Shown one piece after another: positions 24,401 to 62,817 of a stretch of DNA of 64,000 bases. Where the stretch lies: assembly GCF_964194025.1 (NCBI RefSeq), contig NC_134474.1:17670001-17734000 (forward strand), read 5' to 3'. Positions within the stretch are counted from its first letter, which is position 1. Every line of letters begins with the position of its first letter. Position numbers and translations under genes: made by a program. The stretch is from Convolutriloba macropyga. Taxonomy: Eukaryota. The notes beneath the pieces are model-generated. The model made no database searches. It saw only the letters and a program-made list of their open reading frames with translations, and was not told where the DNA came from.

Positions 24401-27400
24401 CACTATATTTTTTAAGAACATTGGCATGATTATAAATTGAAAACAATTATCTTTAATTCTGTTTTTCGTTACGAAAAAAAATCAATTAAAACATCTAAAC
24501 GCTGAATTTTTAAGTTGAGTATTTCCTACAAAGTTCAGATAGTTTTGCGAGCGAATGTTCAGAGCTGCTGCATTATAATTTTGAGCTAATTCATTCTTTT
24601 AATTTTTTTTTTGAATTTCAGCAAATAGGTGTTGATGACTGTTTGACATGTTTTTCGAAGTTACCCGACAATTTTGTGTAGATTGAGTACATTCTCAGAG
24701 TTATATTCTTATATTGCCAAGGTTTTGCTTTTTATGGTGATCTTTCACATTTCTGATTGTGAATTTATCCCTTTTTTATACTTATAGGTGTAAGATATAA
24801 AAATGTAATTAAAATGGAGAACATAAAAAATCTCTACTTTTTTGTCTTGAAAAACGTATTTCTATTGGCAAGATTTGCTAAAATTTTCTAAAGTATTTGA
24901 ATTGTTAAAAAAGGTATATATTTTTTACTCTATTGAGACAAACATCGGAATATAAAAACAAAAATATTTTATAAAAACAAAATGTTTGTTAATGGAGAGG
25001 TTTTCTTACCTATAGACTTTGTTTGTTTTTATATGATATAGTTATGATTTATTTTGTTTCTAAAACCTTGTTAAGTTGCAGAGTTGTTAGACCAATATTA
25101 CGCTACAATTACATCCTGTTCAGAGTATAAACAGACAAAAAATAATCATTTTGCTCAGGTTGAGCTCAGAGTCTTAATCTGAATTTTTCCATGAAATGTC
25201 TTTTAGATGCGATGATCAGAACGGTAGCATAGTAAAAAAAAGACTAATGATTCAGTACTGAAATATTAAGAGATTCGGATTCGGGTATAACTGTGGTGCC
25301 GGGCATCAGAAATTGGTGGTGATAATATTGTCACATGTAACATTAGAACCTGAAATAGACATAGACACAGACTACTGTCATGCTATTAGACTAAAGGACA
25401 TTAATTACAATAAACATCAGTGGCGGTGTTCAAGGTTACAGGAGTTAAATGAGTAATTAAAAAGTTTTACGATCTCTTTTACCGAGAACTGACATTCATA
25501 ACAATAACTGATTTTTTTCAACTTTGTGTTACACGTTTAAAACATATTTAAACATTTACACATTTAACACATTTAATAATTAATATTACTATAATTAAAA
25601 ACATTTATTTATTATAAATATTATGTTTAGAAAAACTGTGGTCAAGTCAAGGTGTGCATCTGAACTCCTCCTCAGTTGTACAGTCTTCTTCTTACTCTTC
25701 TTCTTCTTCTTCTTCTGTCTATCGGAAAACTCCCTTTTATCGGTCAGATGAGACGACCTCCTCCACCACTGTCCTCACAAACATCACATGTTTATCAACT
25801 CATCTTACAGCTTTCTCTTTTATTATGGTACGAAGTCAATTCCATTCTTAATCGTCGCTCAATTAGCCGAATAAAAGTTAAAACGAAATGTTGCTGCCCT
25901 TGATGAACGGCAATAATATTTAGAATGTTTTCTGAGCCTTTTTTTAAACAAATTATTAGGGTTTATGTAGCCGGTATTGCATATGGGGTGGAAATGGCCA
26001 TTATAATTAATAGATAACTCCACAATAGCTTTAAATAAATATTAGTTACATGTGTTATATAGGACTATTGCACGGGGGGGGGGGGGGGAGGAGGAGGAGG
26101 AGGAGGGTTCGAGGGACAGCTTGCATTATTGCCGTGCCGCTTGTGAAATCTAAGCAACATTTCTGTCATTTTACTAGATCTGATAAACAACCGCGAGTTT
26201 TATTATCGCTGACTCTTTGAAAGTTATTAAATGCAACGAGAAAGCAACGAAATCATAGCAAGTCAAACTAAAATTTTTTTCAGTTGTGAATTTTGGACTG
26301 CTTCAGTAAAATGCTTCAGTTAACATTTCTGGTCATTTATTGATAGGTGTTTGTTTGTCTCTTTGAGAGTGTGTATTTTGTTTATTTGTTTGTTGCAGAG
26401 TGAGACGGGGCGTCTGTGGGACACGGAAGTGCCCTCTGTGTTGCCCTTTGTGGGTGTGGGATTTGCAATTGTGGGTTACACTCTCACAATCATCACTTAC
26501 TGCCTTTTCAGGTTAGTTACCCTCCTCACTCTAATCCACACCCCTTGTAATATGTCACCCAATGAGCGGGGTCAGCTGGGAAGCCAATAAGGATTAATAA
26601 CTTCCTCTTGCTAGCTCGGAGAGCATTTCAATTCGGAAACGGTGGAGGTCAATCAAGCCCATAGCCAAGCAAGCCGAATTTTGAAAAAAAAGAGAAACTA
26701 TAAAAGCAGAAAATTTTTGATATAGCGCTGTTATAGATTGTCCCTGGCGGTCTAGTGGTTTTGCTTCGCCCCGAAAAAAACGGGCCCGCGGTTTCCGGAT
26801 TACATCCCACAGAGAGTGAGAGTCGTAGCCATTTTTAACTCTGATGTGGTAGGTATTTTATTCGCTTGATCTTAATTACCACACTAGAGCTAAACCTATA
26901 TTATTGTAGCGACCTTAATTGCGTGCTAGAATAAGTCTCACAATATGCTCACAATGTTCTTTGCTAATTTCCAAATCTATGTGTTATTTGCTAGAAAATA
27001 AAATTGGTTAGATACAAAGGTTAATTAGTAAATAGATAAAAATGATAGAGCACAATTGGGGATTAATTCCTACTTGAAAATATGGTGGGGTATCTAATCT
27101 TAATCAAGAAATTGAATCCATCTTACTGCTGGATATGAATAATAATTTAACTCTATTTTTGTTAGAAAATTGGCAGACTTACAATTGCTGCAGATAGTCC
27201 CGCTTAGCGGAGAAAATAGTGGTTTCGCTCTTAGAGCAGAGAGAGGAAGAGAGAGAAGAGAATTTTTTGGTTAGATTTTTAGCGTCTTACTTTCGCGCTG
27301 GTTGAGTTTTGGTCTGATTTCCTTCAGCAGCAAAATCTAGTCTCGTGCGTGTTTATAATTGAGTCAACACGACTAAAAAATCACAAGACCTATGACTAGC

Positions 27401-30400
27401 TCCGAATCAATTCCTAGGTCATTCGTGGAGCCGACTACTACTCGTCTTTAGTCATATATTCGTTTCAGAATTGGTGCTGAAGAGCGGCCTGGATAGCTTC
27501 AGTATCCTTCACGTATTACGCGTATTAATAGCGGTGGTGAATCAGCCGGTATGGACCGCTGCATAGTGTATTAAATAATACACAGCAGTATTTGGCTATG
27601 AATAATGTATTCATTCACTCAACGCAATTCACGCAGCATAGCTCTCTCTTAATATTCCGTCAGTTTAGACTAAGTCTAAAGTGTTCACAAAGTCGACGGT
27701 TAAATAATTATACTCTCTGTAGTATCGGTAATTGCGGCGGCAATTATCCAATTAGCAATACTACAGCTCACCCCGGTTTAAAGAAGAGAAAAATTGTGCT
27801 CTATCGTACAAAGTTTACATTAAGAGTATTAAAGAAACGATAATAGTGTTTACAAAAAGTTGCAAAGTGAAAAGCAACATATTAAGGGAAATAATACTTT
27901 TAAAAGTTACGACTTTGCGATACTGATGAGGGTTACTAGGTATAGAATTTTAAACAAATTTGCAGTTTACATATTAGTTTACAAATAGAGACTGGATAGC
28001 AAATACACCAGTTATGAGACTAATAAGATTTAAGAACCGGTTGGTGATTAGGAGTAGAAATACTAGAATATATGCTCGTTGGAGAAGTTTACAAAAGTTA
28101 AGACTATTAAGATCAATGGACAGCAATGATACTGTGCGACAAAATTAGTAGCCTTTAAATGGAAAATTTCATGAGACACATAAACAAAGTGATAGTGAAA
28201 GAGTTGTTACAAGTACAGCAAAGACGAAAATGAGTCTTAGAATATTAATGTGAAAGGAAGTTTACAAAATCAGAAATCAATGTTAATTGTTCTTTATAAA
28301 TTTTAGCGCTTTCAATTCTTTTGCAAGGCTTTGATTGGCTTCAATGAGCTCATTTGACTTCCTGATTAGAGTTTTCAGCTGGGTATCTCTAATTTCTAAA
28401 GTTTTTGAACAAACGACCAGCTTTTTTCTCATTATCTCTTTCTCGTTGTTGGTTGTCTTTGCAGAGATTTGGAGAGCGCTCAGTTGGCTCTGAAGGTCTG
28501 CTAGAGCATTCTCTGACTCCCAGAGTTGTTTCCGGAATGTGGAGTTCTCAACCACTAGATCTGTGGTGGAAATTGTTTCGGCCATGTTTGTGTTTTCTGG
28601 GAAGGCTGTAAGGTTGGAAAAAGGGACGTGCATCCTACAGCCTAGCGTCTTGTGAGCCACTTCATATGACCTTTCGTTGGCATTTCGGGAGCGAAGTCTC
28701 CACAGGTTCATTGCCGGTACCAACGAAAAGTCAGGAATCACCGGTAGGGTGTCGGTGGGAACAGTGATCGTCTGGCCGGTAACTTTATTTTTGATCACTG
28801 TTTCCTCTGACAGACACCATTGGTTACAGTCCATTGTGAGGGAATAATCCAACGACTTAACGAATTTTGGATTGTTGTCTAACGGATGCATCTCTCTCAT
28901 CCGTTGGTGCTCCAGCCTCTCTTCCTTCAAAGGAAAATCTCTTCCCTTGGGCAATCCGTCGTCTATGGAACTGTGAATAGGCTGAAGAGGTGCTTGATGA
29001 GAGTTGCTTTTAACTGTGGTTTGTTGATGTTGATGGGGCTCATGCTGTTGTCGGTATTGTTGTTGATGTTGGTGTTGATGTTGTTGTTTATGTTGTTGTT
29101 TGTTGAGATGACCACGTTGACGCGGATGGATTGCTCTAGGCTTCTTTGCTAAAGGTGGAAGATCAGCCATCCAGTTGGTCAATGGGTCATACTGCTCCAC
29201 TGGCAATGTGGGGGTTGCGGTCTGGTGGGATCTTTTCGACATCTTGTCAAACATAAATATAAATACACTTACAAATAAAGATTAAAACGAAATCTAGTTG
29301 TGCTGAAAAGAAAACAATCGTACTTTTAAAGGTACCAACAAAATCATACTCTTAGAGTACAGAATTGCAATCACACATTATGTGCAGAATCAATTTGCGA
29401 AGCTCCCACCGGGGTGGAAAGAAAGAAAAGAAAAAATCGAAGGAATTGAAATTTTGAAAACAATCTCCGTTTTAAAAATCGGAATATCCTATTAACAAAA
29501 AATTTAATTGTTTAGAAGCTTTGAATCAGATTGTGTCAGATTTAACTGACTAAATCGGGTTTCGGACCTCGTGGCTCCCCTCCGTGCGACGACCCGCGCA
29601 GCTGGGTTTTTTGTGTTGCAGTATATAACTGCTAGTGGTGAAGGGTCGTTAGATGAGGAGAAGGATGAGGACTTCTAGGAGGAGGCCAACAGAGAGGGTG
29701 ACGATAAAGGAGAGAAGAAGAAGAATTGGGACGTAAATGGGGTGCATTTGCATTGTTTAACAGCTTTCCGACCAAACGTCGTGAGGGTTGATCTTCTTCA
29801 GACAAATGGGGCAATTATGTTTATCTTGGGCACAGGGTTTGCACACAAAATGTCCAAGGTCCTGGTGACATTTTATGTGCGGGTGAGTTGAGGAGGTGAC
29901 ACATTTCTTTAGTTGATTGCAGCAGAAGCATCGGTAGTAAAAACTAATGGATACGGTGTAAATATGGCGGAGGCAAAGGGGGCAATTTGGTTGGGAAGAA
30001 TGTTTGAAGAGGTTAGTTCTGCAATCAGTGCAAACTAGATGAGGGGGTTGGTCTCCGTCCGAAGGGTGCAGTTTTTTCCAGCATGATGTAATTCGTAAAC
30101 AAATGGGACATTCATCATGATACTCGACAACAGGGGGGCGTGATGAACTTTGGAGGGGAAAAACTATTCGAAAGGAAAAATAATTTCCCATTTTAAAAAT
30201 CTCGGGATGGATAGATAGTTTCGTTATTAAGGTTATTTGGGAGATTTGATTGACCTAATTTTAATACGAGCGACTTTTCTTTTTCAAAAAGAAATTCCAA
30301 TGGGGTGAGAGGGGAGTTAGGGTTTTCATTAAATTTTGTTGAGTGTCAATATTAACATAATAAATTTCTAAGGAAGGGGAGGTATAGTTGTCAGTCTCGG

Positions 30401-33400
30401 TAAAGGAACGTTTAATGTCAGTTATTCTGACTAAATGCTGGTTGAGGTGAAAAATCATAATTACAATAATTTATTGGATTCTGTTGAGATACTTCTAGCA
30501 CATTTAGACTCGTTATCGAGGAGGTAAAAGACATAATCCCAGTAAATTGAAGTGGGGTAGACTGAGAGGGTTGATGTTTTCTGGGTTTTCACGTTCTTCA
30601 AGTTTACTAAAATAAATGCTTGAAGGGAAGGTTCAGTTTCAAAGGTTTTCACGAAGCTGCAAATCTCAACTAGTTCTTGGTTCAAAAGGAAAAACATGAC
30701 TTAAAATAAAGGAATAGGATACTTAATTGTTAATTCTGCGTTAGAAAAGAAGGATAGGAATAGGGATATTTCGAGTATTTGGGGGTGACTAATTTTTAAG
30801 GTTAGATAGTGATTTAAAATGCTGTGGGGTTGTCGAATATAAATAATAAATGAGTTATGGGTTGTGGATAATCCAAGGATAATATATTTTATAATATTTA
30901 ATTTAAGGGTAAGGGATCTATTCTGTATATTAATCATTACCAGTTGGAGATGTCAATGGGAAGCTCGTCTAAATTTTGCTCTGAAAGCATTAAAAAAAGT
31001 TCCAATAAGGGGAAAAAGCTGGTATTTTTATTGAACCTTCGTCCCAAGAGTCTACAAAATCGAACAAAACTTCTAGAGTGGGAGTTACTTGATAGGGAAA
31101 ATGGATAGTAAAGGATCGATTAATTTGATAAGGTCTTACTAAACTGCCTTGGTAGTAAAAGTACATTCCAATACGTTATTCTCGTGCTGATGGAGCTTGA
31201 AGTGTTTGCAATGTACTGTAAATACGTTTGGTTCTCTAAAATGTTTAAGAAATAAAGCAAAATTAGTTAAAACGTATAAAATAGCAAATAAAATAATTAG
31301 TTCCCGAAGGGACTTTTGAAGATCGAGGTGCATCATTTTATAAAAGAAAGTGGATGTTGCTTCCTAAATCTAGTAGACCATATTCACAATCAAGTAAAAA
31401 TTCCTTAAGAGTATAAAATTTTTCGTGGTCTGAATAAATTAATATGTCTACTAAGTCTGAAAATTTGGGTGCGCTAACTTTTAAATGCACTAAGTTTTCA
31501 TAAGCGGGTGTAAAAGAGTAATATATATGTCCGTAAAATTCGTGAAACTTAATAAATAAACCTTTATGGTACTCGGATACAAAAAGATCATTAAAGTTTT
31601 GCATCTCAGATCATAATGCTGAAACAGTTAGGTTTAAACTAATAAGAGTTGGTGAAATGTGATTAATTAAGTATAAAAAGACAAATTGGATGACTGAATT
31701 ATGGGGGAGCAATTGCATTTACTTCTTGCTCAGTAGGAACTTTAGGATAAAGATGTGGTATTTCTTGAATAGGAGGTGATACTACTTCAGGTGCAGTGAG
31801 TGGTGACAATTCAATTTGACTGTTGTCGTGATAGATGTTATTATCTGGTGTGCGCTTGAGGTATCGACTTCTGTTTGGTTCGTTGTTTGTATTGTTATCA
31901 GAATTTTCATCATTTTTAGGAGTTTGATAAATTGATGTGACAATGGAAAGTAGAAACAAATTGTACGAGGCTCCTAGTAGTGTTTTCCAAAAACCAATAG
32001 TGTTTTTCGACAGTTTTTGTATCTCGAAAGCTCTTAAAATAAAAATTACGACATCGATCAAGAACTTGATCAACATGAAACATGCAAATAAAATTCCGGC
32101 TCTTTCTATGTAATAGCCAATTCTCCAAAAGTACTCTTAAAGTGATCAAGGAAAAATGATGGTGACAACATTGAATCTAAGTATAGTCGATTATTGAGAC
32201 CTGCGGCGCGATAGATATCGCGTTGACTACTGTCTACGTGTGCATTTTGAAGCACTGTTTGAGAAATCTTTTTCAAAACTGAATTAGAAGCTGATTTATG
32301 CAAAATTGTTCTCCAAAAATCTTTCAACTGGTTTACAGTGTAGATACCTGCACGACGAGAATCATAATCAGGGATTTTTTGAATATAACCAATTTGTTGT
32401 GGAGCAAAAACAGCGGGCGGTTTAAAAGGAACTGGCGCCGGCATCAACTGATACCAAGAATTATTATTATCTAAATCAAGTTGAAACAAATTTTTGAAAG
32501 TATCTGTACAGTCTATTTCATTTGCAAATGGAAATGTTTGGCGCGTAATAGGATTAACAAACATAGTTTTTCCGTCATAAAAGATCGGAATACGGTCGTA
32601 ACAGCGATCAAGTACTTTAAGCGGTGAAATTTTCTTTGGACACGGATATAGAAAACCTATAACACCTTCAATTTCTAAAAACATTGAACGATTTCCGGTT
32701 AACATGTATCCGGCCAATCTATTGTTTTCGTAAGACAATGCATTGATCATTTGGATTTGAGTGCGTCTGAGCTCGCACATATTTTGTAAAATAAGGAAGT
32801 CAGACTGTTCCAAATCACGATAAATCTTATACATCATGAAATTAATTTTCATACGCATATGAGCATCATAATCGATAGTGTCTTTTCCAACGTTTTCAAG
32901 AATTTTTTTATGATTTCCAAAATGTTGGCTACCAACTAGCTTGTTTTTAGGTGTCTCGTAAAAACCGTTCACCCTTATTTTGTTGTCGGTGCCGACTTGC
33001 ATTTTGTAATAATTAACACTATTTTTCGAAATTACGGTTTTTCCCGTATTCATATCAAATCCGCCTGTGAAGGAAACAAATAAATCATCAAAGTTTGTAA
33101 TAAACAAAGGAGTAGGCTTTCCACAAATATAAATTCTTTCATTATTTATCCTCAGTTTTATGTCTCGCGTGTGGTCTATTTTCATGTTGTTTTGCAAACG
33201 ATAAACATCATTTTGCATGTCGTGCGTACTTATGATGTAGTATTGTGGTGGATCTGGTTCGTTTGTGAACTTTATCATTTTTGCAACTTGAGTGAAAAGT
33301 TTTGTAACAATGCAATTTTCTGGCACATCCCATGAGTAAGCGAAGGGGTCTAGTGATGTTGTTTCACAACCTCCTTCCTTGAGTTCGCATGGAAGTTTTA

Positions 33401-36400
33401 ATCCTAATGGGGTAAAAACTGATTTTGTTTCCTGATCAACTTCGAGTTCAACTCTTTGCATTTGTGTTTCAAAGGAATAAAGTTTTACTTCTCCTGACGC
33501 AGAGCAATCTGTGTTATCTTCTAAGTGGTCGTCCTCATTCAGACCACCGTGTGTGTATTGGTGTTTTAAAACTTCATTTGAAATGTCTAGCTTATAAGTT
33601 CTATCGTACTCTGTTATTGCTATTTTTCCTGTTTTGTTTGCACGTCTGCATTCTTCTGGCGTTACTATGACGTCAGTTGTAAGATAAATTTGGTCATATG
33701 CTAAAGAAGAGTGCGATGAAAATCCACAGTGCCATCTTAAAGCTTGCGATTTTACTCGACACATCACTGCCTCTACTTTTGTTCTGTACGATCTTTGATA
33801 CAGTGTCACCGTTGCAGGTGCAACTTTAATATTTTCCGGTTTAATGTTGCATTGAGCTACTTGATTTAAAGCATACATTTTGCTTTCTTTCATTTTTGAA
33901 CAGTCATAATGAACAACTTTTAACGTAGGGGAGATGTCATCCAACTCATTTCTAACTGAGGGTCTACAAAAAGATACAACAGTAAAGACAAACAAAACAG
34001 TTAAATATTTATAAAGGAAGTTATTGTTTTTCATAATAACTTTATTTTATTAGTGATTGACTGAGTTTTTGGTTTTTTTAGTGTCAGAAAGCTAAGAATA
34101 AGGCTGGAAGAAGTAAGAGAAAAGGTCTCGGAAGTTAATTTTCCGATGATTTGAACCTTTAACGTAAATATATAAGGTAAGATTTAAGTAAATCCCGCTT
34201 GATAGCGAGTAGTAAGTTTTTTCAATCGTCCCGAAATTCGACGATCGATTCGAGATGAACGTTGATCATCCGAGGGAGTTGGGTTTGCTTCGGGTGATTG
34301 TACACGGGTTTGTGTTCTAACCGGGCTGACTCTAATGTCAGGTGGATCTGCAAAACGAATACGTGTTTCGGGATATGGGGTAGAACTTCTAGTTCTACTA
34401 CGACTACGGTTATCAGGTGTTTGTGTGTTATCTACAAACGTAGTTGAAAAACCTTCTTGAAATCCTGAATCAGGTTTTGTTATTGTGGTATTGTTATCTT
34501 CAAATATTTTTTCATGATTATTTTCATTTTGTATGTTATCCGAATTACTTGTAAAATTGTCTACTGGGAAAAATTCAGTTTCAGTATAGGGTTGTTGAAA
34601 GGAAAATTTATTCATTGGCTTATTAAGTTTTTCAACTTGTTTATTCATTAAATTTTTGTAGAATGGTTGGAAGTTTTCATTCCTTAAACCATAGTCAACA
34701 ACTAATTCTGAAATTGCGTTTTCGATTGGGAAGTACTCAATTAGATGGTTTCTATGGGCAACTTTTTTGACAGTTTTGTTTGAAACAAGTTCTATTTCGT
34801 AATTTACATTTGTCAATTTTTTGTTACTTCATACGGTCCTGTTCTTAGTTCATGTAACTTTTTGGATTTTCCGTCCTCGAATGAGTGGTTTTCCATTAAC
34901 ACTAGTTGTCCTACGTCTAAAGGCTTACCTAGTTTATGTTTGTTTCTGTTTTGATGTGCTTTGGAGTTAACTTCTAGGCTTCTGTTGTATGCAGTTTTGT
35001 AAATTTGTTTGAATTGATTTTCACGAGCAAGCAATGAACTACTTAGTTTTGGTTTTAGTAGTTTATCTATTTGATCGTTGTTGCTACTTTGTTCTGAATG
35101 CTTGTGGAGTGGTAAATCTTTGCAAAATTCTGAATTACAAGTTAAATCGGAAGACCTTAATAATCCTAATTTCAGAGAAAGGGGAATTTGGGGCTTTTGG
35201 CCAAAAACGATTTCGTAGGGTGTTAATCCTGTACTAGTGTTTGCTGTTGTGTTATGAGCAAACGCGAACTTTGGTGCTAAGTCACTCCAATTACGATTAG
35301 CTTGTTCAAAAAAGAATCGGAAATGTGTGCCAAGATGTTTGTTTTGGATCTCAACTTTTCCGTTGGTCCAGGGAGAATATGCTGTTCTAGGAGCATGCGT
35401 AATTCCAAGTTCATGAGTCCAACTTGTGAACTCCTCATTCATAAAGGCTGATCCTTTATCATACACAAGTTTTTGTGGGATGCCAAAAGTAAGAAAAAAT
35501 TTCTCAAGTGCTGATATTGTTTCGCTTGCTGATGTTGATGAAACTGGGTAGACTTGGATGTAACGAGAAAAGGAATCAATTACTACTAGGCAATGTTTGT
35601 TTCCGTTCGAAGGTGGATTTATTGGACCTTTGTGATCTATATGTACCGTGTGGAAAGGGAAGGGTACAGTTTCTGTCCATTTTTCAAGTGGTGCTTCATT
35701 TAAGTCTTTGCGTTTTTGTTTATTTTTTTGACAGTCTAAACAATTCGCTATTAAGTGAGAAACCCATTTATATAAACCTGGCCAATAGAAAAAGCGTTTT
35801 ATGCTTGACAATGTTTTATCTTTTCCAGAGTGTCCAGAAAGCGAATCTTGGTGAGCTAAATCAAAAATTTTTAAGAAGACGGATAATGGTGCGCATATTT
35901 TGATGTTTTGAATATTTGGATCTTCAGTTGGTTGTTTAATACATAAAATGTTTCCAATTAGGCAAAGATTTTCAAAATTATTCAAGTACGTTTTCATGGC
36001 TTTTGATTGTCGAAATTTTACATTTTTCTCATCTTTGTTTCCTGATTCAGAAAGTTGTCTTACAGTCTGAATGACTGGGTCTTTGAATTGTTCCTGGCTG
36101 ATTGCTGCTATGTTCAAGTCAATATCTTTAGCAAAACTAGATAATTTCTCGATTAGTTCTTTTCCATCTGAAATTTCGTTATTTTCACAAATTGGTTTTG
36201 CTAGTCGAACACTTGCTATTCTATCAAAGTTTGCTTTGCTTGCTTCAATCTCTTGCTCAAGACTCATGTCATCTATTTCTAAATCTGATAATTCAACAGA
36301 ATCTAACAGAGGATCGTCTTCTGTTGTAGAAAATTTTTCAAAGTGCTCCTTTTCCTTTTCCAAATTATCATCAAATTCTAAAGACAAATCAGAGTAGTAA

Positions 36401-39400
36401 TTTTCACTGTCGTCTTGTTCGCTTAGGATTGGCTCTTTGAGTGGGAATTTTCCGCGATAGTGATTTATTGCATTTCCTTTCAAGAAGGATTCTGATATGT
36501 CCGAAGTTGAACAAATTCGATCACTGGGTTTATAGTTTGTCTGAAAAAATTGTTCATTTTCAAAATTCAGTTTTTTAACTCCTTGAAAAGTTTGTTTTAG
36601 AATGGGGTAGCAATCATTTTTCTGTCCCTTTTCATTGTCATGCAACACGAAGTATTTTTCTTCGTTGCCTGACTCGTCGTAGAATTTAATGTCTTTCGGA
36701 ATTTTTTTGTGTTTCAGTTGATACTTGTCTAAGTCTTTTATCGAGACGTTTCTACTTAGAATGTCTGGAAAGGCTAGGTTTTTGCCTTCTGTCCAAATTA
36801 TTTTTAAGTTTTGGAATTGTGAAATGACAAGTTGATAGCGGAAAAATCGATGAGATAATTTTCCTCTACGTCCCCAAAGATACAGTAGGGGCTTGTGGTC
36901 TGTGTAGAGATAAACTGGATGTGGAGAACCTATTATGTAATGCTCATACGTTTGTAGAGCAGAAATTACGCCACAAAGTTCTCTAGCTGTTGTACTCATT
37001 TTTTGCTCATCTTTTGTGTAAACTCGAGAATTAAATGAAACTATCCGTTTTCCGGTAGGAAATTCTTGAACTAAAATTGAACCAACACCAATTGATGATG
37101 CATCTACATGAACATGGAAGGGGTATCTGGTGTCAGGAATTGCTAAGACTGTATCTTCACTTATACGATCCTTAATTTCTCTGAACAACTTCTCGTGTTC
37201 ATCTGTCCATTGAAAAGTGGTTTCAGTTTTTATAAGATCGTAAAATGGCTTACTGTCTACATGCAGATTCTTTATGTACATGCTGTAAAATCCTAAACAA
37301 CCTAGGACTCGCATTACATCTCGTTTATTCTCAGGTGTCTTTAAGGCTTTGAGATCTTCAACCCTTTTCTTTACTGGTTGAATTCCGTCTTTTCCTACTA
37401 CATGTCCTAAGAATTGTACTTTACGCAAAAAGAATTTTGTTTTCTCAGGTTGAGCTTTCAGTCCTGCTTTGCGTAGCAAAAGATGGTACTTTTTTATGAT
37501 TGCATACATCTCTTCAGCTGTCTGAGCTTGCATGATTGTGTCATCAATATAAGTCACGGCTTGTCTACATTTTATTAAGGGTGCAAAATGGATTGTCATT
37601 ATCCTACTGAAAAAGTTTGGTAGTCCGCAAAGTCCGTAAAAACCACGTTGAAACGTGTATTGTTTTGAACCTATTACGAAACTCGTCAATTGTTGTGTTT
37701 CCTCCGTTAGAGGGACTTGATTATATGCAGAACATAAATCACTTGTAGTGAAGTAGTTTCCGTTTAGTCTAGTCAGTAAAGAACCTATTGGCTCTAGAGG
37801 CCATGAATACTTACTTAGGTCTGTTATTGAGTTTAGATACCTAGCGTCTATTACTAGTTTCACTATGTTTCCCTTTGGAAGGATGATAACGGGATTAATA
37901 AATGACAATCCCATTTCGGTGTCGTCTCCCATTTCTCGAATTATTCCTGCTTTACAGAGCTGATCTAGCAAAATTTCAAGTTTTTCCTGATGGTGCAATG
38001 GCACTCGTGATGGTCTCTGCTTAGTCAAGGTTGAATTTGGTAGAAGTTTTACGTGAAATTTTTGCTTTATTTTGCCAACGTCATACTTGTGCTGAGAGTA
38101 GACGTCCTTGTCTCTGGCAAGAAGTTTCATGAGATCTAGTAATTGTGCATCATTAATGTCAGATTGACTGAAGTCAAATTTTTTGAGAAACTCACGGTCT
38201 GATTTACTAAATATTTCCAGTTTTTCTGGTGGTATTTGTTGTGGTCGAATTTCACCTTCTATTGTTGCTTTTGGTTTTAAGTCTTTTAGATCTTGACTAA
38301 AATCTGTTTCTAATTCATTGTGGTCTGCAAATTCTTTTTCTTGAACCTTTTTCTGAGCTTTTTTCAGCTTTTGTCTAATATCTGTTTTGTCTAATTTCGG
38401 ATTTTCTAAAGTCTGAATTGGGTTTTCGACTTTTTCAGTCACATGAAAGATGTGATTGAAATCTGTTTCAGTTTCTGTTAAGACATCTAAGAACGAGACG
38501 TTATCAATCAGTGTGTACTTTTGTGTTTTTTTGCAAATTTCTTCCAAAGTGTATCCTATTGAACCTTTATCTATTGTTACTTTACGATCACCAGGGTTAT
38601 TTAGCATTATTGGCAACTCTTTTTCTTTTCTTACACAATAGACGTTGTATGTGTAAATACTTTTGCCCTGGAGTCGATTGTCAATTATAAATGATGTTCC
38701 TTGTTTGAAAAATTGGTTTGATGGTGTAATTGTTAGTACTCTGCTAGATTTCGGTGCTAGTTCGAAAGGTCTGTTAAGTACAACTTTTTCAAATTTACTT
38801 ACAAAAGGATAACTTTTTGTTTGATATTTTGAGAGTGTGATTGAGACGTTTGGATAAATTTTTAAGTTCATTTTTGGAGTTGTGAACTCGATTGATTTTG
38901 TTGCAAAATTCAAAAAGTCCATTCCTAGGATGTTTAATTCGCAACCGTTTTTCTCTGAAACCCATGTTTTGAGATCTGTGTAATATTTGCCTTCAATGTC
39001 AAATGAGATTGGGACATGAATGTAGCCTAAGAATTTTAATCGTTCACCGTTGACTGCAATTGTTTTCTGTTTTGACTCAATTAGTTTAACATCAATCAGT
39101 GACTTAAGTTCTTGTAGGAAATCAAAGTTTATTAGGGAACACGTTGCTCCTGTGTCAACTAGAAACTGCGATTCGAAACCGTTATGTTTATTACTGTCTC
39201 CGACGGCGTGAATGTACAAGTTAATAAAAATGTTTGTCTTTTTATTTTTGTACGGAGACTCGTCTAGTTTAAATTAATTTCATCTTGTTGATTGTCCACA
39301 AAGAATCCATTAACTTTATTTTCTCTGAATTGAACTCTGTTTGAGTTACGGTCTCTACTGTTATCTCTAGAATTCTGATTAGAACTGTTACTTCTTCTAT

Positions 39401-42400
39401 AGTCCTGTCTTGGACTGCTTGACTCACGATACCTTGTTCGGGAATCGTTTCGATCATATTGTCGTTCCCTGGAATAGTTCCTATTATCCTGGGGTCTACG
39501 ATCGTTGGATCTGCTATTATAGCGTCGATCTCGATTCTCAAAGCTTTGTGAGCGATTTCTGAAGTTATTGTTCTCAGATCTAGGATGAGGAGAGTATTGT
39601 CTGCGGTTATCTTGGTTGTAGTAACTGTTATGTGGTCTAGTGTCTTGTCTGTATCGGTTCTGATTTCTATCATAACTATCTTCTCTTGGACGACGTTCTC
39701 TATAGCTTTGATAGTTATCTCTAAACTTATCTCTTTGCTGTGGTTGTTGTCTGTTTTGTTCTTTAAAGTCTCTGTTTGCATAGCAATATGCTATTGTGTG
39801 ACCCGACTTTCTGCAAAATTTACAAAATCGTGTGTAATTTTGTTTATTTCTAGGCTCGTTTGGGTTGTAGGCTGCGCTAATTCTGTTGTTTTTCATTAAA
39901 CTTGCTAATTCTTGGAGCTGGTCTTTTATACCATCTATCTCCATTTTATTGTCTATGCTGCTAGATGCTGTACCTGTGAAATCACTACTTACTGCAAAAC
40001 TTAAGTCTTTAGAGCTAACTTGATTTCTAAGTTGTTCCCATGTTGCGTTGGGTGTTTCTATCAAATATTGATGCGCTTTTTGTTTAAGTGCTGGAGGAGT
40101 TAGTCCTCTTACAAAAAATTCCATACACTTAGTTTGCCTTTGAGCATCTGTGAATGGGTCGGGCCATCCCTTTTCCACTGCTTTTGTTAGTCTGTGTACG
40201 TAACTTTTGATTAATTCATCTGGTTGTCTACGAATGTTTTCTACCTCAATTCGTTTTCTGTACTTGTCTTTCTCGTCTGTGAATCTATTTAGGAAACCTG
40301 TCCTAACATCATCCCATGGTTCCGCTGCGGGCAAGGAATCGAACCATTGGGCTGCTGGTCCTCTTAAGACTGAGCCAAATAATGCTTTTCTACGTGCGTC
40401 ATATGCATTTTGTGCATCTCCTGGTCCTGGTCTAACTCCTAATGAAAACTCTATTTTTCTCTCTATTAGACTTAGAAAATCTGCTACGTCCTCACTTGGG
40501 TCTAAGCCTGTAAATTTTTCAAGAGAAATGTCTGGGTATGCTACGATGTTAGCCATTTTTGTTTTAAGGTTTTTGTTGAATTATTACTAAGTTTTTATAT
40601 GAAAAAGATACTATAAACGAAAGAAGCAATATAAAAGTCTAATCAAAAGAATTTGAAGCTATGCAAAGGTCAAACAATTTTTTATAGAATTTAGAAAATA
40701 TTCAGACAATTTGCTTAAACAAATGGTCCTATCTCAAAAACACTATTTGGGGTACGAAGTGCGTCTAAAATTTGGTTAAACTTTGGGTTGTTTTCCGCAT
40801 GTGTTATGTAACAAGCTAGTCCTGGAATGTTATCAAAATTAATGAAAATGTACATATATTGCTTTTTCTTATCTAATTTATAACTAGTAACTTTGCCTGT
40901 ATTATGACCAAGTTTGATTATAATATTCAAGAAGTTAGCGTCAATATTCATCGAATTCAACTTTTGCTCTAAAAAAGGTGTAATTTTTGACAGTATAAGT
41001 TACAAAATTAGGTACTAGAGTGAACTAGAGTTCAATATAACTATTGGGCGTGTGCAAAGCTTTCAAAGTTTTGTAAAAATCAGGATTAGAACTTGCATAT
41101 GTTATAAAACTGTGTAGGCGCGGATCGTTAACAAACCTGTAATAAATAATCAGAGATTGTTTATCGTTATTTAAGGTGTACCTTTTAACTTTTGCAACTT
41201 TATCGTCGTACAAAATTGTTACATTTAGATGCTTTGTACTAATATCCATAAGCTTGAATATAAGACAATAAGAATAAAAATGAGTTTTTGTTTTATTTTT
41301 CACTTCGTTTTATACAAAAATTTTTGAGATTAAATAATTATGGGCATTTGTTCATTCGTTGATAGCAACCATCTTCGGTTAGTCGAAATTCTATCCAGAA
41401 AAATTTTCCTGACTGACAAAATTTTGGTTTTTGATTGCTTTCAGAGTAGGCGGTTGTTAGTATTGGCCTATATACTCTGACTCGATAGGAAATGATTTGA
41501 TTATCGCTATCAGATTTTCTTATTAGAACACAATAAACTATTTCTTTTTGGATTATTTCTTTAACAAAGTCAGGTAGTGTGGGTGATAACATGCAAACTT
41601 TTTCAAACTTATAGAGTTTATTATCTGGCAAGGGTACTAATTTCAGATTTTGGCTGCTTTCGCTCATTTATTGGAAGCGTGTGGTAGAGTGTACATACAT
41701 TGTAAATCGATGATTGAGCCACGTTTATTAAGTCTATTAAACAAATAATCTAGAGAGGTGTTTTCAGTTTTGAAAATGGTTACTTGACCAACAGTTTTTG
41801 TTATTTTGATACGGTAGACTATTGTCACGTATGATTGTTCAACGTCAGTGACGTATTTGAGCACTCGACAGTCTGCTGAGTTATCCTTAATACTTATTTG
41901 TTTGTCTCCTATTAGGTATTCCATAAACTTTTTTGCAAAAACTGGAAATTTAAATTTGTTGAAGTGAATTTGTAGCAGAATTATACGTAACCCAACAAGT
42001 GCAATCGAATATATGGCTCAGAAAAACGAAGGAGAAACTTAAATATTACAAAATACCAGTAAAGGGAACGTTTACTGAAAAAGGTTGCACGAAAAGATCG
42101 TGTTATTTCCTTTAAGTTTGCCGTTTTGGTGGTTAGTTTTGGACAAAACGCTATATTTCTATTAGTATATGAACTTAAAACAGGCGTTAATAGTCTTCAA
42201 TAGCTATTTTCTTGTTTCTGTGTTCGAATATTTAGTCATACTTCAGGATTATTGGCGAATTTCAGGAAATTATTCGGAATTTTGAGGCCAATTTTGAGAT
42301 TTGTGCCGCTAATTTGTATCCAAAATGAGATATTTTTCACTTGTTGTGGTTCAATTTGGGTAATTTTTTACAAGTTCTGGGCAATTTTTGGATTACCTGA

Positions 42401-45400
42401 GTGAATTTTGGGTCAATTTTGGGCAAAAAATGACAATTTTGGGTCAATTTTGATCAATTACCAGATCAATTTAGACAAAATATTGTAAGATCTTGGCAAA
42501 TTTTGACAATTCTTTACCAAAAGCGGGTGTTTTCTTAATGAAACAGGGTGAAATCGGGAAAATTTTGGCTAAACTTGACAATTTTTTGACAATTTTGGGC
42601 TAATATGTCAATAATTTGGGTCAAATCTAATAGTTTCGGGTTAAAATTATTTCAATTTTGTGTCTAAAAGCAAAAATTGTGGTCAAAATTTACTACATAT
42701 AGTTAGTTATTGGTTAATTTCAGGCAAATTCTGGATTAAAACCGATAAATTTGCATGAATTTCAGATAAAAACTGAAATATTTTGGTCAAAAATGGGCAA
42801 ATTTAGGACTAAAGGCTCTAAAATTGGGCACTTTTTAGGTAAAAATTGAAAAAATTTGGTCTAAATAAGTGAATTTTAGGAATATATGAGCTTAATTTGG
42901 CAATTTTAGAGAACAATCTGGGCTTATTTTGGTGAAATTTAGTGGATTTTGGCACCAAAACTCAATTATTTAGTCAAAACTGAGGTGAATTTAGGCAAAA
43001 AACACACAATTTCTACACCAAACAGGGCTAAATTCTTCAAAAATCTAATAAAATTTAAAAGTTTTCACTTTATTCCGGACAATTCTTGTGAAAAATTCTG
43101 TAAAATTGGCTGATTTTAGGAGGAATTCTCATAAATTCCTGTTAAATTAGGCAGAAAATAGGCAAAATCGGGCTAAAAATCTCATAAAACCAACTTTGCT
43201 TAACTCAAAACTATGAAATTTTGGAAATTGGGGGGCTAAATCGGGGCGTTATAGTGACTGCTGGGGTGTTTGGTTAACAATACAACGTTATTTGTAGCTA
43301 TCAGAGTGATTTATTAACTTCTAGATACATTAAAAGGTACACTATGCATGTATAATGAAGCAAAACAACGTTAAACTAGGCTTATTTGCATGTGGGTCAA
43401 TTTGTTTTTGCAATACTATGGGTTTGGAGGATGATAAGTTCGACAATTTAAATGATAAATCAAAAGTTAAGATGTATAGGACACGCTAAGGTTAAGTTAC
43501 GGACAATAAATGCGAGCTAGATTAATGAATATTGATGTATGATTTCGTATATAGGACTAGGGGGGATAGTACAGTTCGTTATGCTAACAGTATTAAAGAT
43601 TTGGTTAAGTTGAACACAATTATTTAGTCTAAAAGTAACATTAATGTGACCGGTCTTGTCGAATTTTGTGCGGGGGGGAGTACAAATACGTCTTTTTATG
43701 ATACACAATTATGTACTCACGTGTGCGCTTAAAAAACCAACCTACAGTGTCAAAATTTGGGTCTGAGAAGCAAAGAACCGGTGCTCAAAGTTATTAAATC
43801 AGTGGACTGTTCTTTTGTGGGGAGAACCCGTCTCTTTTAGTCGGTCGTAATTGAGACGTTCAGAATCTTAGAACATCTCACACAGGTACTGGGATAGCGC
43901 GGTATGTGGCCCTACCATAGAACCTGTGTGACCTCTGGGTTTTTGGTTTGGAAAACTAGCCACAAAAAGTCCACCAGGCTCCTAAATGTGTGAGCAACCG
44001 ACGTTCTTTATTCCTCGTCGCACCAGTTTTTAACTCTGATGTGGTAGGTATTTTATTCGCTTGATCTTAATTACCACACTAGAGCTAAACCTATATTATT
44101 GTAGCGACCTTAATTGCGTGCTAGAATAAGTCTCACAATATGCTCACAATGTTCTTTGCTAATTTCCAAATCTATGTGTTATTTGCTAGAAAATAAAATT
44201 GGTTAGATACAAAGGTTAATTAGTAAATAGATAAAAATGATAGAGCACAATTGGGGATTAATTCCTACTTGAAAATATGGTGGGGTATCTAATCTTAATC
44301 AAGAAATTGAATCCATCTTACTGCTGGATATGAATAATAATTTAACTCTATTTTTGTTAGAAAATTGGCAGACTTACAATTGCTGCAGATAGTCCCGCTT
44401 AGCGGAGAAAATAGTGGTTTCGCTCTTAGAGCAGAGAGAGGAAGAGAGAGAAGAGAATTTTTTGGTTAGATTTTTAGCGTCTTACTTTCGCGCTGGTTGA
44501 GTTTTGTTCTGATTTCCTTCAGCAGCAAAATCTAGTCTCGTGCGTGTTTATAATTGAGTCAACACGACTAAAAAATCACAAGACCTATGACTAGCTCCGA
44601 ATCAATTCCTAGGTTATTCGTGGAGCCGACTACTACTCGTCTTTAGTCATATATTCGTTTCAGAATTGGTGCTGAAGAGCGGCCTGGATAGCTTCAGTAT
44701 CCTTCACGTATTACGCGTATTAATAGCGGTGGTGAATCAGCCGGTATGGACCGCTGCATAGTGTATTAAATAATACACAGCAGTGTTTGGCTATGAATAA
44801 TGTATTCATTCACTCAACGCAATTCACGCAGCATAGCTCTCTCTTAATATTCCGTCAGTTTAGACTAAGTCTAAAGTGTTCACAAAGTCGACGGTTAAAT
44901 AATTATACTCTCTGTAGTATCGGTAATTGCGGCGGCAATTATCCAATTAGCAATACTACACCATGAGCAGCGGTCCGCTGGTGCTCGCAACTACTCGATG
45001 CCTGGAAAAATCATACTTTTGATAACATCCTGTTTTTGAGACCTTCGTTACTTAAATCAAAATTTAGGAAATCTCTAAATTACATACATTTTAGGAATTT
45101 TCTATTACTGGACAGGTAGGGCTTATATTCTGCACTCGCTATTTTATTTCCAATTTGACGTGCTCTTTTTATCCCAAACTATTATTGCTATTTACTCTAT
45201 TGTATCCAATAAATAGGCTTTTAGCGAGAAAATGAAAATTTTTGAATTTTTTTCCTTGTCTGTCAAACCCAACTATCTGTGTTTTGGTCAATATTGCAGC
45301 ACTTTTATCGCTAAGCACTCTATTGAGGAGCTTCGTATGTACGCAGTTATTAGTTTGCGTGCTAAAATTTTCAGACACAAACCCATTGTTTTTTCAATTG

Positions 45401-48400
45401 TGCCAAAACTAAGTAGGAAACAAAAAAGCCTGGCAAATAATTGAGAAAGGTAAATTGAAAAATATTTCGCACTCCCGTTACAAATAATTTGTTTTTTTTA
45501 TTTCCTCGAAAAAATTTTTCGTGTTATGTTTCAGGACAACTGCTACATTGCAGTAAAATTTTTCAGAGGAAATGACACAACGAAATATTGGTAACAGAAG
45601 TGCGTCAACTTTTCAGTTTATTTGCCAAGCTAGAAACTTCTATTCCTTTGAAAATTATCAACAGGAGCCCGACAAATTTAACCGCATACTTAGACAAGAG
45701 AATTGCCTCAGGACTGTCTAAACAATTTTTTAGTACAGAAAAAGTGATCTCGTATGTTTTTCTGATTATATTTAATGTTCTTGACAAATGATATCACTCG
45801 ACAGGTTCCGACCTAAATGATTGTCCCTCCATGCTCTATACGTATTCATGTATTGTGCAATTTATACAGCATTTGGTAATTCAAATCTAATCTAAAAAGC
45901 TCATGCAAAAGTTACAAGTTGCTTCATTTTGTCATATATCGCTATCGCTGAATGTTTTTAATCTTAAATAGCATATAAGAATCATATATGGAAATCTTGG
46001 CAACCATAGCAAGATCATATTAAAAAAAAATTTGTATGGCCTGTATGGGACCAGATATGGTTCCCAAGAATCGTCAACCCGGGTGCTGACCAAACCTTTT
46101 TCTTGAGGTAAATGGCGGAATTGCTGTTGTGTTCTATCAAGTCACCCTTGAATTCTTTGTGCTTAACTTATTTGACATTGGTTTCCTCAGGGGTGCTTTT
46201 TTGTTTTAGTTCTCTCCGCGGAAACGAACGCCAACTGCGTGGAACAGTAACAATCAACCTAGCCCTCTCTCTTCTGCTTCTCAACATATCCTTCATCGTA
46301 GCCGCCCTCCGAACCCGATTTGACCATTCCTCAATTTGCGATTGGGTCGCCCTCTCCATGCACTATTTCACCCTTACAACACTCCTGTGGTTCGTAGCCG
46401 ACGCTGTCTTTCTATTCCAACAATTGTCAACTCATTTTGAAGTGCGAGGAACCAACAAAACCGGTGCGAGTGTTGTGGTGTCCAACGGGACTCGAACCCA
46501 GAACGGCAATGGACCTGGAGTGTCCAGTACTCTGGGTTCGGTTGCGGTCGGGAGGGTTGGAGGGGCGTCCCCGAATAGTGGGGCGATGGTGCTAAACAGT
46601 CAAAATTGTCTCTCAATGCCTGCTTTGAAGTATTTCGTCATTGCCTGGGGTGAGTTGACGTAATGCTTGTCATGTTAGCCGACAGGGGGCTTAGACGACA
46701 AAATCATGAGAAATTTAGCTGGTGACCGCCGGAGAGTACTGGAGAGTGTAACTAGGTGGTTAGACCTTCGTTACGCTGGATGATAAAAAAACTACCATTC
46801 CATTCTCAGTTTAGGAAATATCCTCTCAAATTGACCAATCACAACTCCAGAATTGTTCTATTTGCTCCTTTTTGGCTAAATTTTGCAATCTTTGTTTTCG
46901 ACTAAGCCCCTAATGCGTCGTCCGCCAGCTAAACCGTATATCAGAAAGTAGCAGAATAAACAAATTTGTTTGTTTCAGTGACCCCACTGCTGATAATTGT
47001 CCCGATGTTGATGATAAACAATGGAGAGTTGTTCCATATCAACGATATATAGTAAGTTCAACATTAAGTTGGAAAGATATCGCATTTTTTGAAAAGTCTA
47101 GGATTAAAAAAAAATATCACTTGTCCTTTATTTTCTTTTGAATCGACCACTGAATTGAGATTTTCATGCTGCCTTAATAAAGAAAACAAACAGGTGTTAA
47201 AACAGGAGTTTGAACTAACTAATTGCAACTTATAGAACCTTTAAACAAATACTTATTTTTGAAATCATTAGGTATTCTTTCAACTTTGAAAAAACAACTG
47301 ATTTGTCTGATGATATGCTAACATTTAACTCAATTGATTGGATAATTTTTTGTTTCAGCTGTAGGATAACTGACCAATCAGAGCAGATAGCTTACTATCT
47401 CTCATTGGCTGTTCCCGCGGCCATCGTGGTCATTGTGGGCCTTTGTGTCTATCTATTTGTCATTCTGTGGATTTACTGCTGCAAAAACTGCTGTTCTCAC
47501 TCTAACCAGTTACCACACATGCCCTTAAACGACGGGTACCTAGAGACCCTTAGCAGCACATTAAGCAAAAACACAAATTGTCACCAACAACATCACCTCC
47601 TCAACCCGGGTTCGAACCCCAGCGGGACCCCCTCTCCAAACAATTTTCACAAAGGTCCAACAGTTTTGTACGATACTTCAGACGCAAGTTTGACAGCTTT
47701 TAAGAAACACGTTTTGTCAATGACAATTTTGCTTGCCTTGTTTTCTGCAACATGGCTTTTCGCTCAATCGCTGGACCTCCAAACTTTCGACTTTGTATTC
47801 TGCTTTGCAAACGTCACTCAAAGCTGGCTATTTTTCTCTGAAAAGTGCATCCTTCTTTCCGAAGCGAGGAATGCGTGGAAAAGGTTGTTCAACAATGCCG
47901 GGGCCGATTCTAGAAACGAAGACACGGCCAGGGGTAAACTTTTACCCAAAAACTCATCGCCTGCTAACTACGGAGGTGCAGTTTCACCAACTCATAGCTT
48001 AGTTTCCACCATGAAAGACACACTAGACAAACGGGAATTAATTAACAATCATTCTACAATGCCAACGATGGTTAACAGAAACCATTCAGCTTCGCAAAGT
48101 TCCATCCAAAATACGATTAAACTCGATAGAGCGTCGCCTGCCTCGGCTACAAACCCAATTTTAAACTCCTCAAGCAACATCGCGGGTTACGACACGAAGT
48201 CGCCTTCGTATAACCAGAACAAACCAAATCGTCAGAACCCCACTTCGGGCAACTCGACAATCCGAAAGGAAACCAGTAATGTATTGTCCAACGGAAATTT
48301 CCACGCCCCGAGAAAACCACCGCCCGATTTTATTAGCCCGACGTTACCCAAAAACAGTCTAATTAGCCCGAACAACACTGCTCTGGAATCTCTCTCGGTT

Positions 48401-60535: not shown

Positions 60536-62549
60536 GTAGTGAATGACCTAAAATTATTGAAATCTATCTTACTGACAATAATTGATCTTCTGCATCATTG
60601 TTTTTTATTAAAATATCAAATGATATAATTTTTACACGGTGCAAAACAAAAGGCTAACACGTGACTGTTAAGTATTTACATGTGATCGTTCTTCAATAAT
60701 TTTTGACCGCTCGGGTAAAAATAGTTTTCAAAAAATTTCAAAGCTCGCAGAAACAAAAACAGTGTTTCAAAATTGCTTAATAAAATAAATTCAATATATC
60801 TTCGATTTTGTGTGTACTTTTTTTCTACTAAAGAATATCTGACCTCTGCTTTTTAGCGTTTGATCAAAGAATAGCTCTTAATGGGCACAGTGTCGATCTT
60901 TATTTTGCAAATAAGACCCCTGAATTATGAAAATGCTGTGAACAATTAAAAACAGATTTTACTAAATCTAGAATAAATTTCTTTGTATCATCAATAAAGT
61001 TATTGTGGCCTTTTTGTTATTTAAAATTTAGCGGTTATGACAAAACTTTATCAAAATCATTCCTTTTGAGGCTTCCGCAATTTGGTTTGTTTGATCATGT
61101 GATAATATTTGAGATTGAAATTTCTCCTAGTTGATGATAAAATTTATAACCGTTAATGAATCATCTCGCTTTATATGTTATTTGTGAAACTATTTGTCTG
61201 TCGTTCAAACTTTTGTCTCCTAGTTTTTCTGAAAGCTTTTTCCATAAATAATTACGAAGATTGAGCTTGTGGTGCATATTGACAACAGTTCAATGCCAAA
61301 TTTTTGATCAAAAGTTTGCAAAAATCAAATTTAAGAATTTTTTGAAAAAGTTAAGTGGCTTCATTGGGAGACTCCTGTTTGTAGCAGAAAATAAGCCTGC
61401 GCATCTTTTGCAATAAGCTTAAAATGTGTAGTATTTTTGCTGAAGAAGTTTAATTCATTTTTCCTTCAAATGTTAGTTTGCATACTAGAATATTTATTCC
61501 GTCTATGCATTTCCTTGCCTCCTTGTACTCCTTCCCACAGTTTAGTTCACACATTTGGTCAAGTACATATAATTGATCAAATTATGTACCAAAATTTGGT
61601 GAAAGAATGTTTGACAAATTAAGAAAGAATTCGTGTTCAAAAAGTGTTTTTGCTGAAAAAGAGTCTTTGATGAAACTGATTGTTCTATCTCAACCATCCC
61701 ATTGTATTGACCCGGAAATAGTGTGGATCATTACTTCATCATTATGTACACTGGTTTTGCTAATCAGCAGTGATCACGTCTTATTTCTAGTCTTAAGACT
61801 GGATTCAAGACGTTCCAAGTCTAAAAAGTGACATGATCAGAGCTCTTATGCAGTAATGATCCAGGACTTGCGGTAACAATTTTTCAGTGCTGATTAAGAT
61901 TTGACGTTCGTTCCGGGGAAATATTTTCTTCACCTCGGGCGTACCCTGACAACTTTCCACATCGTGACGTTGAGAAAAAAAATGTAAAACTGAATATTGC
62001 ATCTCAAGGTATTAAAACACGTCTTTCGCCTCAGGCGTACTTGTGACATATTTTCCATGACAACTTCTTACATGAGCTGCATTTTTGTTTCTAAGAAACA
62101 ATTTCGATGAATCTCCGCAATGGACAAAAAAGCCACCTTTTTCAATCATTTAATAACACTTTAGCATATACCATTATAGTCTTAGCATTATCTTTGAACA
62201 TAAATTATACATCAGATACATGCATAATTTTTTTCTTGAATGTGTTTATCAGAAGGTATTAAAAATGAGAACAAAATTGAAATGAAAAATGTTCAACTTT
62301 AGATTTTTCATATTATTAAATGAAGTTTTGCTCTTCTGTTAATTGAGATTTTTAAAATAAATTAAAAGTATCCCAGAGTTCTACTGAAGAGATAGGTTGT
62401 TAACAACACCTCTCTCGAATTCGGAACAAATATTATATATGTCGGAGGATAAGCATGAGCTAAGTAGGGTTTTATGATCAGCTCTATCAGCTTATATAGC
62501 CTGGCTTTAATGGACCAACCATTTTTTCTGAAACGCAGCCGCTTATTAA

Positions 62550-62685
62550 ATTTCATGGTAAAAAGTGACATACGAGAGTCTGGGCATGTTAAAAGAAGGT
62601 GACCCGCTTTTTCACCCCTTTATTTTCGTCCCTATAGGATCTCATATGTCACTCGTACCTCATATGTCACATTTTACCATGAAAT
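62550..62685. mobile_element. MITE-like element
   Basis: Terminal inverted repeats ATTTCATGGTAAAAAGTGACATA / TATGTCACATTTTACCATGAAAT. Confidence 0.65.
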
Positions 62686-62711
62686 GTTATATTTATAGAT
62701 GGAAATTGTTA

Positions 62712-62817
62712 TAGAAGGATTTAAATTTGGGTGAAATGGTAGAGGAGAGAAATAATTTGGGGTATGCTTCCAATTACTTCTCCCCTCTGCCATTTCACCC
62801 AAATTTAAATCCTTCTA
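62712..62817. repeat. Near-perfect 106-bp hairpin / MITE bounded by TA
   Basis: 28-bp perfect arms extending to ~48 bp with few mismatches. Confidence 0.8.

Follow-up and report, generated by a model that had tools for sequence, protein, structure and literature searches.

What is a retroelement doing with a kilobase of DNA whose A/T tracts keep step with the double helix? The question is raised by an 18.1-kb Ty3/gypsy element with long terminal repeats (LTRs) and an envelope-like gene, which lies on the minus strand of a 64,000-nucleotide stretch of Convolutriloba macropyga contig NC_134474.1 (positions 17,670,001 to 17,734,000; hereafter the window, in whose own numbering all coordinates are given). 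An earlier note on this DNA had placed such tracts in the leader of the element, probably within an intron, and had suggested that they might protect it from silencing as the periodic An/Tn clusters (PATCs) of C. elegans introns protect germline genes. We found that the feature is real and unusually clean, and that a sister family of elements has an array of nearly identical pitch at the same position without shared sequence. The array may act as a curved chromatin module, and a neutral origin remains a reading beside that function.

Results

The array runs from 42240 to 43260 on the minus strand, where 97 helical turns follow one another with a period of 10.41 bp (10.408 bp in the fit for family A, as we call the window element's family). 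The spectrum of AA/TT dinucleotides over 42251-43250 peaks at 10.40 bp with a normalised power of 116.3, against at most 18.5, at any period, in 300 dinucleotide-preserving shuffles of the same segment. In a background sample of 19 arbitrary 10-kb stretches of the host genome, no 300-bp window out of 1862 reached a power of 20, and the highest value in 703 windows of 1 kb was 15.7; the kilobase of helix-phased tracts is thus confirmed, and the 10-11-bp peak that the earlier note expected stands far above background. The 21 intervals averaging about 10.4 bp that it had counted were recovered as 219 bp in 21 turns, or 10.43 bp, between tract centres at 42260 and 42479 (19 tracts and two empty turns). 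S-S dinucleotides (S being G or C) share the period of AA/TT (power 68.8), TA dinucleotides do not have it (1.9), and a weaker fringe extends in phase from the core to about 42050. There are 83 AnTm tracts of at least 4 bp in 98 turns, with a resultant of 0.82. The phase has a standard deviation (SD) of 0.39 bp per 52-bp block, sustained across 97 turns; in controls made of randomly ordered 10- and 11-mers the median SD was 1.05 and the 5% quantile 0.62, and because the observed value lies below that quantile, the phase is tighter than random 10/11 ordering would give (a shuffled-increment phase test, being inflated by tract jitter, was not used). On the element's sense strand each turn passes from a C-rich segment to an A-run and then to a T-run, and this strand is poor in G (12% in the family A array, 9% in that of family B, described below).

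Two simple descriptions of the array are excluded: a plain 10- or 11-bp minisatellite, since lags of 10 and 11 carry no excess identity and the phase is too tight, and a coding role, the longest stop-free run being 56 aa. Rfam returned 0 matches at E 0.1 within 40500-45000, and depth over the array was not above that of its flanks, so a large free-standing satellite (at least 90% alike) was not seen. A faint 73-bp unit of seven turns is present in the window array, with z 3.4 in a comb test at K = 7 (0 of 2000 shuffles reached it; 14 K values were tried); in family A its z was 3.4-4.2, and a lax Tandem Repeats Finder (TRF) search gave 3.2 copies at 66%. Elsewhere in the window, a weaker 10.35-bp signal (power 22) at 3800-4720 lies in one arm of an inverted pair (4043-5296 and 8158-9447, 74% identical) whose second arm is weakly periodic (6.4); it is probably another repeat family.

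The earlier proposal of bent DNA holds in an AA-wedge model, which predicts 18.4 degrees of curvature per turn in the family A array and 14.1 in that of family B, the median and maximum of 190 1-kb background windows being 6.7 and 9.2. Shuffling whole turns retains the predicted curvature (18.1), and shuffling bases abolishes it (6.1).

Within the element the array does lie in the leader, as had been claimed, past the primer-binding site and ahead of the first accessory open reading frame (ORF), 0.8-1.8 kb downstream of the LTR, and it makes up about 6% of the element's length. What appears to be further leader at 40715-41924 (minus strand) actually contains four conserved small ORFs, and because these stand between the array and gag, truly non-coding sequence reaches from the primer site only as far as the ATG at 41924, a span of about 2.1 kb.

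Other copies of family A carry the array as well. A search of the genome, in which 40 of 111 candidates were scored, gave at least 38 near-full-length matches (84-100%), the window element included. All 46 aligned copies retain the array (power 60-121), most of these having been selected through an array match; among nine further loci selected through reverse transcriptase (RT) only, seven have it and two have lost it through other breaks. Local amplitude drops as private substitutions in the flanks accumulate (rho -0.58, p 3e-5), and the signal is strongest in young copies. Between young subfamilies the array differs by 11-14% and the primer-side flank by 1-5%, fourfold sites differing by 1.7-6% in 8 of 10 comparisons and by 13% in the two oldest; array haplotypes 11-14% apart all have full amplitude. 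At least four such haplotypes circulate and are swapped among young subfamilies. Two copies, L022 and L132, are mosaic, with a primer-side flank 1% from the window copy and an array 11-12% different from its own.

Five sister families, B to F, were compared with family A. The pol tree, (E,(D,(A,(B,C)))) when rooted on F, has FastTree supports of 0.90-1.00, and the gag tree leaves the order of A, B and C unresolved; both trees contained solely this genome's families plus unnamed gags. B and A are 84-87% identical in RT and 59-68% in gag, and the B leader has no blastn match to the non-coding part of A. Nonetheless B has an array at the same position, with a period of 10.42 bp (fit 10.424) and the same sense-strand order of C-rich segment, A-run and T-run; of 21 B loci 20 could be aligned, one being truncated, and all 20 retain it (power 72-107). 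The B array is built of a 104-bp unit of ten turns (7.7 copies at 71%; comb z 16.5), and its non-repeat part is also phased (10.44 bp, power 32.8). Compared turn by turn, A and B are alike in phase but not in colinear sequence: the best z was 2.6, below the null 95% value of 3.5, and their best shared run of ten turns was equalled by 60 of 200 shuffles. Leaders are longest in these two families, at 3.5 and 2.8 kb in A and B against 0.3-1.2 kb in the others. The claim that the period, rather than a repeat unit, is conserved therefore stands across A and B and needs qualification within the window array, where the faint 73-bp unit exists. The earlier note had also stated that a decayed tandem repeat whose phase is lost between copies would count against it, and half of this is what we found: the arrays are tandem-derived (104-bp clear in B, 73-bp faint in A), and phase is not lost between copies. 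Among candidates for relatives in other species, five gag clusters lacked a close match in the host genome at strict cut-offs, the upstream sequence of eight metagenome loci extended no further than 635 bp, and viral contigs gave no relatives.

How the phase is kept can be read in part from the variants. Insertions and deletions of at least 4 bp fall within 1 bp of whole turns in 15 of 23 cases in the arrays and in 4 of 29 in the flanks (p 1.8e-4), most of the whole-turn events being private to single copies. In family A, variants found in at least three copies avoid the tract cores relative to private ones (Mantel-Haenszel (MH) odds 0.61, z -2.9).

The two motifs from which an intron had been proposed were both found on the minus strand: a putative splice donor GTGAGT at 43715..43720, present in 29 of 30 copies, and a putative acceptor (TTCCAG) at 41942..41948, 17 nt ahead of the first accessory ATG, with CAG in 21 of 30 copies and AG in 28 of 30. 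The donor is the sole GTRAGT in the leader, where 1.1 would be expected by chance, and the conservation of both motifs is not specific, as the flanks are conserved as well across the 30 copies. More informative is that families A, B and C all have a YAG 16-18 nt ahead of their first accessory ATG, and that a GT-bearing motif after the primer site is common to B (20/20 copies) and C (4/4 copies); A does not have this motif and has its own GTGAGT. About 150 nt separate GT from YAG in C; in B the distance is 1255 nt and the whole of it is periodic (power 101), in contrast to the B ORFs (4.4, 0.4 and 0.1). In one B copy, L033, the spacer of the first two accessory ORFs, 1008-746 nt upstream of gag, is weakly phased (13.3). 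A GTAAGT also occurs within the LTR at 44378, in 27 of 30 copies. From these motifs it is plausible that the array lies inside an intron, trans-splicing being an alternative to cis-splicing of the leader. A 43720-41942 joint is absent among 15 joints listed of 41 in the contigs of one study, which has no bearing either way, and no retro-copied spliced form was seen among the family A loci without the array, L046, L130 and L135, all of which break elsewhere. Since copies carry the array, it must remain in the RNA that gets copied.

The accessory ORFs that follow are all on the minus strand. ORF1 (41664..41924, 86 aa) is a distant member of a small beta-rich family; ORF2 (41338..41667, 109 aa) has a weak relative (E 0.003) in family B alone; ORF3 (41025..41249, 74 aa) belongs to a small family and has a structure model with a predicted confidence (pLDDT) of 93; and ORF4 (40715..40951, 78 aa) is a paralogue of ORF3, 41% identical. 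Three of the four belong to one small family that is also found in B and C and has 28 representatives at E ≤0.001, all unnamed. Variants shared among copies are biased to third positions in ORF1 and ORF2 (18/28 and 37/70). The accessory proteins have no Pfam match above cut-off, no known fold was matched at E ≤0.001 by their models, that of ORF3 included, and a weak Atlas lead to IS110 transposase fragments (158-160 of 256 features) was rejected. Further ORFs follow env at 28283..31604: five small ones (65-88 aa), a RING-like one (144 aa) and one of 323 aa, most with homologues in families B, C and D, where their copy number varies. There are thus about eleven accessory ORFs in the element, many with a YAG motif ahead, and its expression may resemble that of a complex retrovirus or that of an operon; the latter is proposed because trans-splicing has been reported for an acoel (PMC2481426, Table 4).

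The remainder of the element is that of an env-bearing Ty3/gypsy retroelement. Its 5' LTR (44028..44960) and 3' LTR (26833..27765), both on the minus strand, are 933 bp long, differ at 3 positions (99.7% alike) and end in TG...AA instead of TG...CA, and a 4-bp target duplication flanks them (44961-44964 and 26829-26832). A primer-binding-site-like motif (44008..44025, minus strand) lies 2 nt past the LTR and is identical in 27 of 30 copies. The gene order, gag, then protease, RT, RNase H and integrase, then env, was confirmed with Pfam: on the minus strand, gag (39264..40556) matches Retrotrans_gag at E 1e-7, pol (34184..39273) is divided between two frames towards its 3' end, and the env-like gene (31699..34034), also split over two frames, matches Monjiviricetes_fusion (PF24664) at E 1e-39, the frame splits being those of the window copy.

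Beyond the element, exons of a host receptor of the adhesion type (7tm_2) lie at 46112-48580 on the plus strand, 1.2 kb off the 5' LTR, and an intron of this gene appears to use GTGAGT and TTTCAG. The gene has a 97% match to a protein labelled Convolutriloba macropyga by NCBI, which makes an acoel rather than a nematode the likely host. Further along, about 1.36 kb is duplicated in tandem (51566-54284 and 59264-59734) at 96-99% identity, with 73-86% for a third, partial copy, and two adjacent hairpin-like inverted repeats at 62544-62820, with 33-bp and 49-bp arms, are possibly small transposons.

Discussion

We regard it as an even bet that the array is an intrinsically curved chromatin module, retained by the element, which alters nucleosome packing near the LTR promoter. 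Such an array could have grown by tandem amplification of whole-turn units (104 bp, and probably 73 bp) in a small intron-like gap such as the ~150 nt of family C, whole-turn slippage preserving the phase and lineages with arrays at helical pitch being favoured. It would be kept in the genomic RNA and spliced, in cis or in trans, out of the messages for the accessory genes. As DNA, the curved array would upset the regular packing of nucleosomes immediately downstream of the LTR promoter, and the provirus would thereby stay transcribable and stable silencing be hindered, as for C. elegans PATCs. The case for selection rests on three observations: two builds share the helical pitch, the non-repeat part of the B array is phased, and divergent haplotypes stand at full amplitude. 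In its fullest form, that two families each built, out of differing whole-turn units, an intronic, PATC-like curved module that shields their own promoter from silencing, with haplotypes swapped between active lineages, the proposal is a tentative one, which we would place well short of even.

A number of observations weigh against such a role. No array was found in 9 leaders of families C, D and E (power at most 5.1), in 14 loci of F, or in 8 elements of these four families that were examined from one LTR to the other, less about 2 kb of pol. In copies of C, E and F the paired LTRs agree at 99.6-100%; these families have thus been mobile recently without an array, so that the array is dispensable for recent mobility and at most an advantage, not a need. 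On the pol tree, two origins and a single origin with loss in C are equally parsimonious; under a single origin the period would have survived complete sequence turnover. As most whole-turn insertions and deletions are private, slippage alone can hold the phase, and it backs a neutral account as much as it does selection. The avoidance of tract cores by shared variants was not significant in B (z -1.4), nor was its age trend (rho -0.18 and -0.43); a directional test on low-frequency variants gave p 0.26 (W>S changes, A/T to G/C, in cores: 130 of 232 private against 42 of 86 low-frequency shared), and a signed substitution test in B gave p 0.34, with little weight, being biased by unpolarised variants. 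The 73-bp unit is itself weak, and the comb test did not find it in the family A copy L045.

One could thus envision, as the chief rival, a decayed minisatellite that maintains itself neutrally in a tolerant, intron-like gap and brings the element no benefit, an account that we think possible if somewhat unlikely. An AT-rich short unit would have been amplified in higher-order steps, slippage between similar turns would hold them in register, and agreement with the helical pitch would stem from one ancestral repeat or from a bias of replication or reverse transcription. The clear 104-bp tandem of B, with its whole-unit losses, is what this account expects, as are the mainly private whole-turn events, the four families without an array, the lack of significance in the directional test and a divergence of the array that equals or exceeds that of fourfold sites (0.11-0.16 against 0.017-0.13). 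However, it leaves unexplained why two arrays without shared sequence have a period of 10.41-10.42 bp and the same polarity, why the non-repeat part of B is phased, and why the phase in A is tighter than random 10/11 ordering although repeat identity is nearly gone; the array also costs 1-1.3 kb of genome length.

Less probable, and in our judgment unlikely, is a landing strip for protein, in which a host factor (of the AT-hook, HMG or H1 type, for example) or an accessory protein of the element binds one face of the helix cooperatively, the phasing serving the binding and the quick turnover of sequence reflecting an arms race. The position of the array is that of the repeat insulators in Drosophila 5' untranslated regions (5'-UTRs; PMC8872304), the VANC targets of Arabidopsis offer a precedent (PMC5735166), and the co-occurrence of at least four haplotypes, 11-14% apart and swapped between young subfamilies (as in L022 and L132), would suit such a race. 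The 109/124-aa type of ORF occurs in the two array-bearing families only; the similarity between its A and B members is weak (E 0.003), however, and the co-occurrence amounts to two families. A and B share no colinear sequence beyond phase, no dedicated search for a repeated protein-binding motif having been run, and neither accessory model matches a known DNA-binding fold at E 0.001 or better. Finally, a role outside chromatin, either as curved cDNA that helps to compact or integrate the 18-kb genome, or as a G-poor, unstructured spacer tuning splicing against packaging, would fit the long leaders of A and B, the G-poor sense strand of both arrays (12% and 9%) and the position between primer site and first acceptor, but is quite improbable, as a period of 10.4 bases is meaningless in single-stranded RNA and some 6% of the element seems too local for bulk compaction.

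Among known systems, the PATCs of C. elegans come closest. Like them, the array consists of short A/T tracts that share one face of the helix over a kilobase of non-coding DNA, with An/Tn clusters spaced at about 10 bp over hundreds of bp, an ancestry in minisatellites, a plausibly intronic position and curvature, which is predicted here and was measured by atomic force microscopy (AFM) on comparable C. elegans DNA (PMC1474062). PATC DNA is reported to shield transgenes from silencing (PMC4947018). PATCs are described as arising after the insertion of Helitrons, whose consensus elements lack them (bioRxiv 10.64898/2026.08.08.743475), by post-insertion gain from 35-bp minisatellites; in the acoel, by contrast, the youngest copies carry the array and carry it most strongly, and its units, 104 bp and probably 73 bp long, are whole numbers of turns. 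PATCs are also an abundant, genome-wide feature of their nematode host, whereas the acoel array is borne by an element and rare in the genome sample, with none of the 1862 background windows at power 20. Human L1 ORF2 likewise has a 10-bp helical periodicity in an active retroelement, strongest in young families, and that active L1 retains such mechanics against silencing has been offered as speculation (bioRxiv 10.64898/2026.08.08.743475); there the periodicity is spread through coding sequence, unlike the discrete, non-coding array of the acoel, which varies between sister families.

Among env-bearing Ty3/gypsy elements, gypsy, ZAM, Idefix and Tirant of Drosophila also have a repeat-derived array in the 5' non-coding region, and tandem organisation, reported for 19 of 49 Drosophila 5'-UTRs (PMC8872304), is clear in B and faint in A. 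The Drosophila insulators act through motifs bound by protein, in contrast to the acoel array, whose sequence turns over while the phase is kept; neither 'bending' nor 'curv' occurs in that paper. The VANDAL transposons with their VANC proteins, as described in PMC5735166, similarly combine fast-changing non-coding tandem repeats with accessory genes, but are plant DNA transposons with a demonstrated pair of protein and motif. Errantiviruses across Metazoa share the organisation LTR-gag-pol-env and a class III fusion-like protein (PMC13524379), and differ in that the acoel env matches Monjiviricetes_fusion and the element has about eleven accessory ORFs; the main text of that paper contains none of the words 'acoel', 'UTR' and 'Monjiviricetes'. 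In the literature searched, mostly papers outside subscription, we found neither a helix-phased array in the leader of an LTR element nor these acoel elements.

DNA of the PATC type has been known as a feature of hosts, and its use by active elements has hitherto been speculation. In the acoel a strong, discrete version travels with young LTR elements, in two builds without shared sequence. Because it is present in some sister families and absent from others, and because some copies have lost it by deletion, the genome itself offers naturally matched controls with which to ask if the shape of DNA is by itself enough to withstand silencing, and the array provides a non-nematode cassette that could be used in existing germline-silencing reporters. 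Were its origin neutral, slippage by whole turns could write helical phasing on the scale of kilobases without selection. If instead the array does shield the promoter, a selfish element would encode a mechanical insulator of its own, a form of mimicry that has been argued to be costly, indeed too costly, for invaders (PMC4947018).

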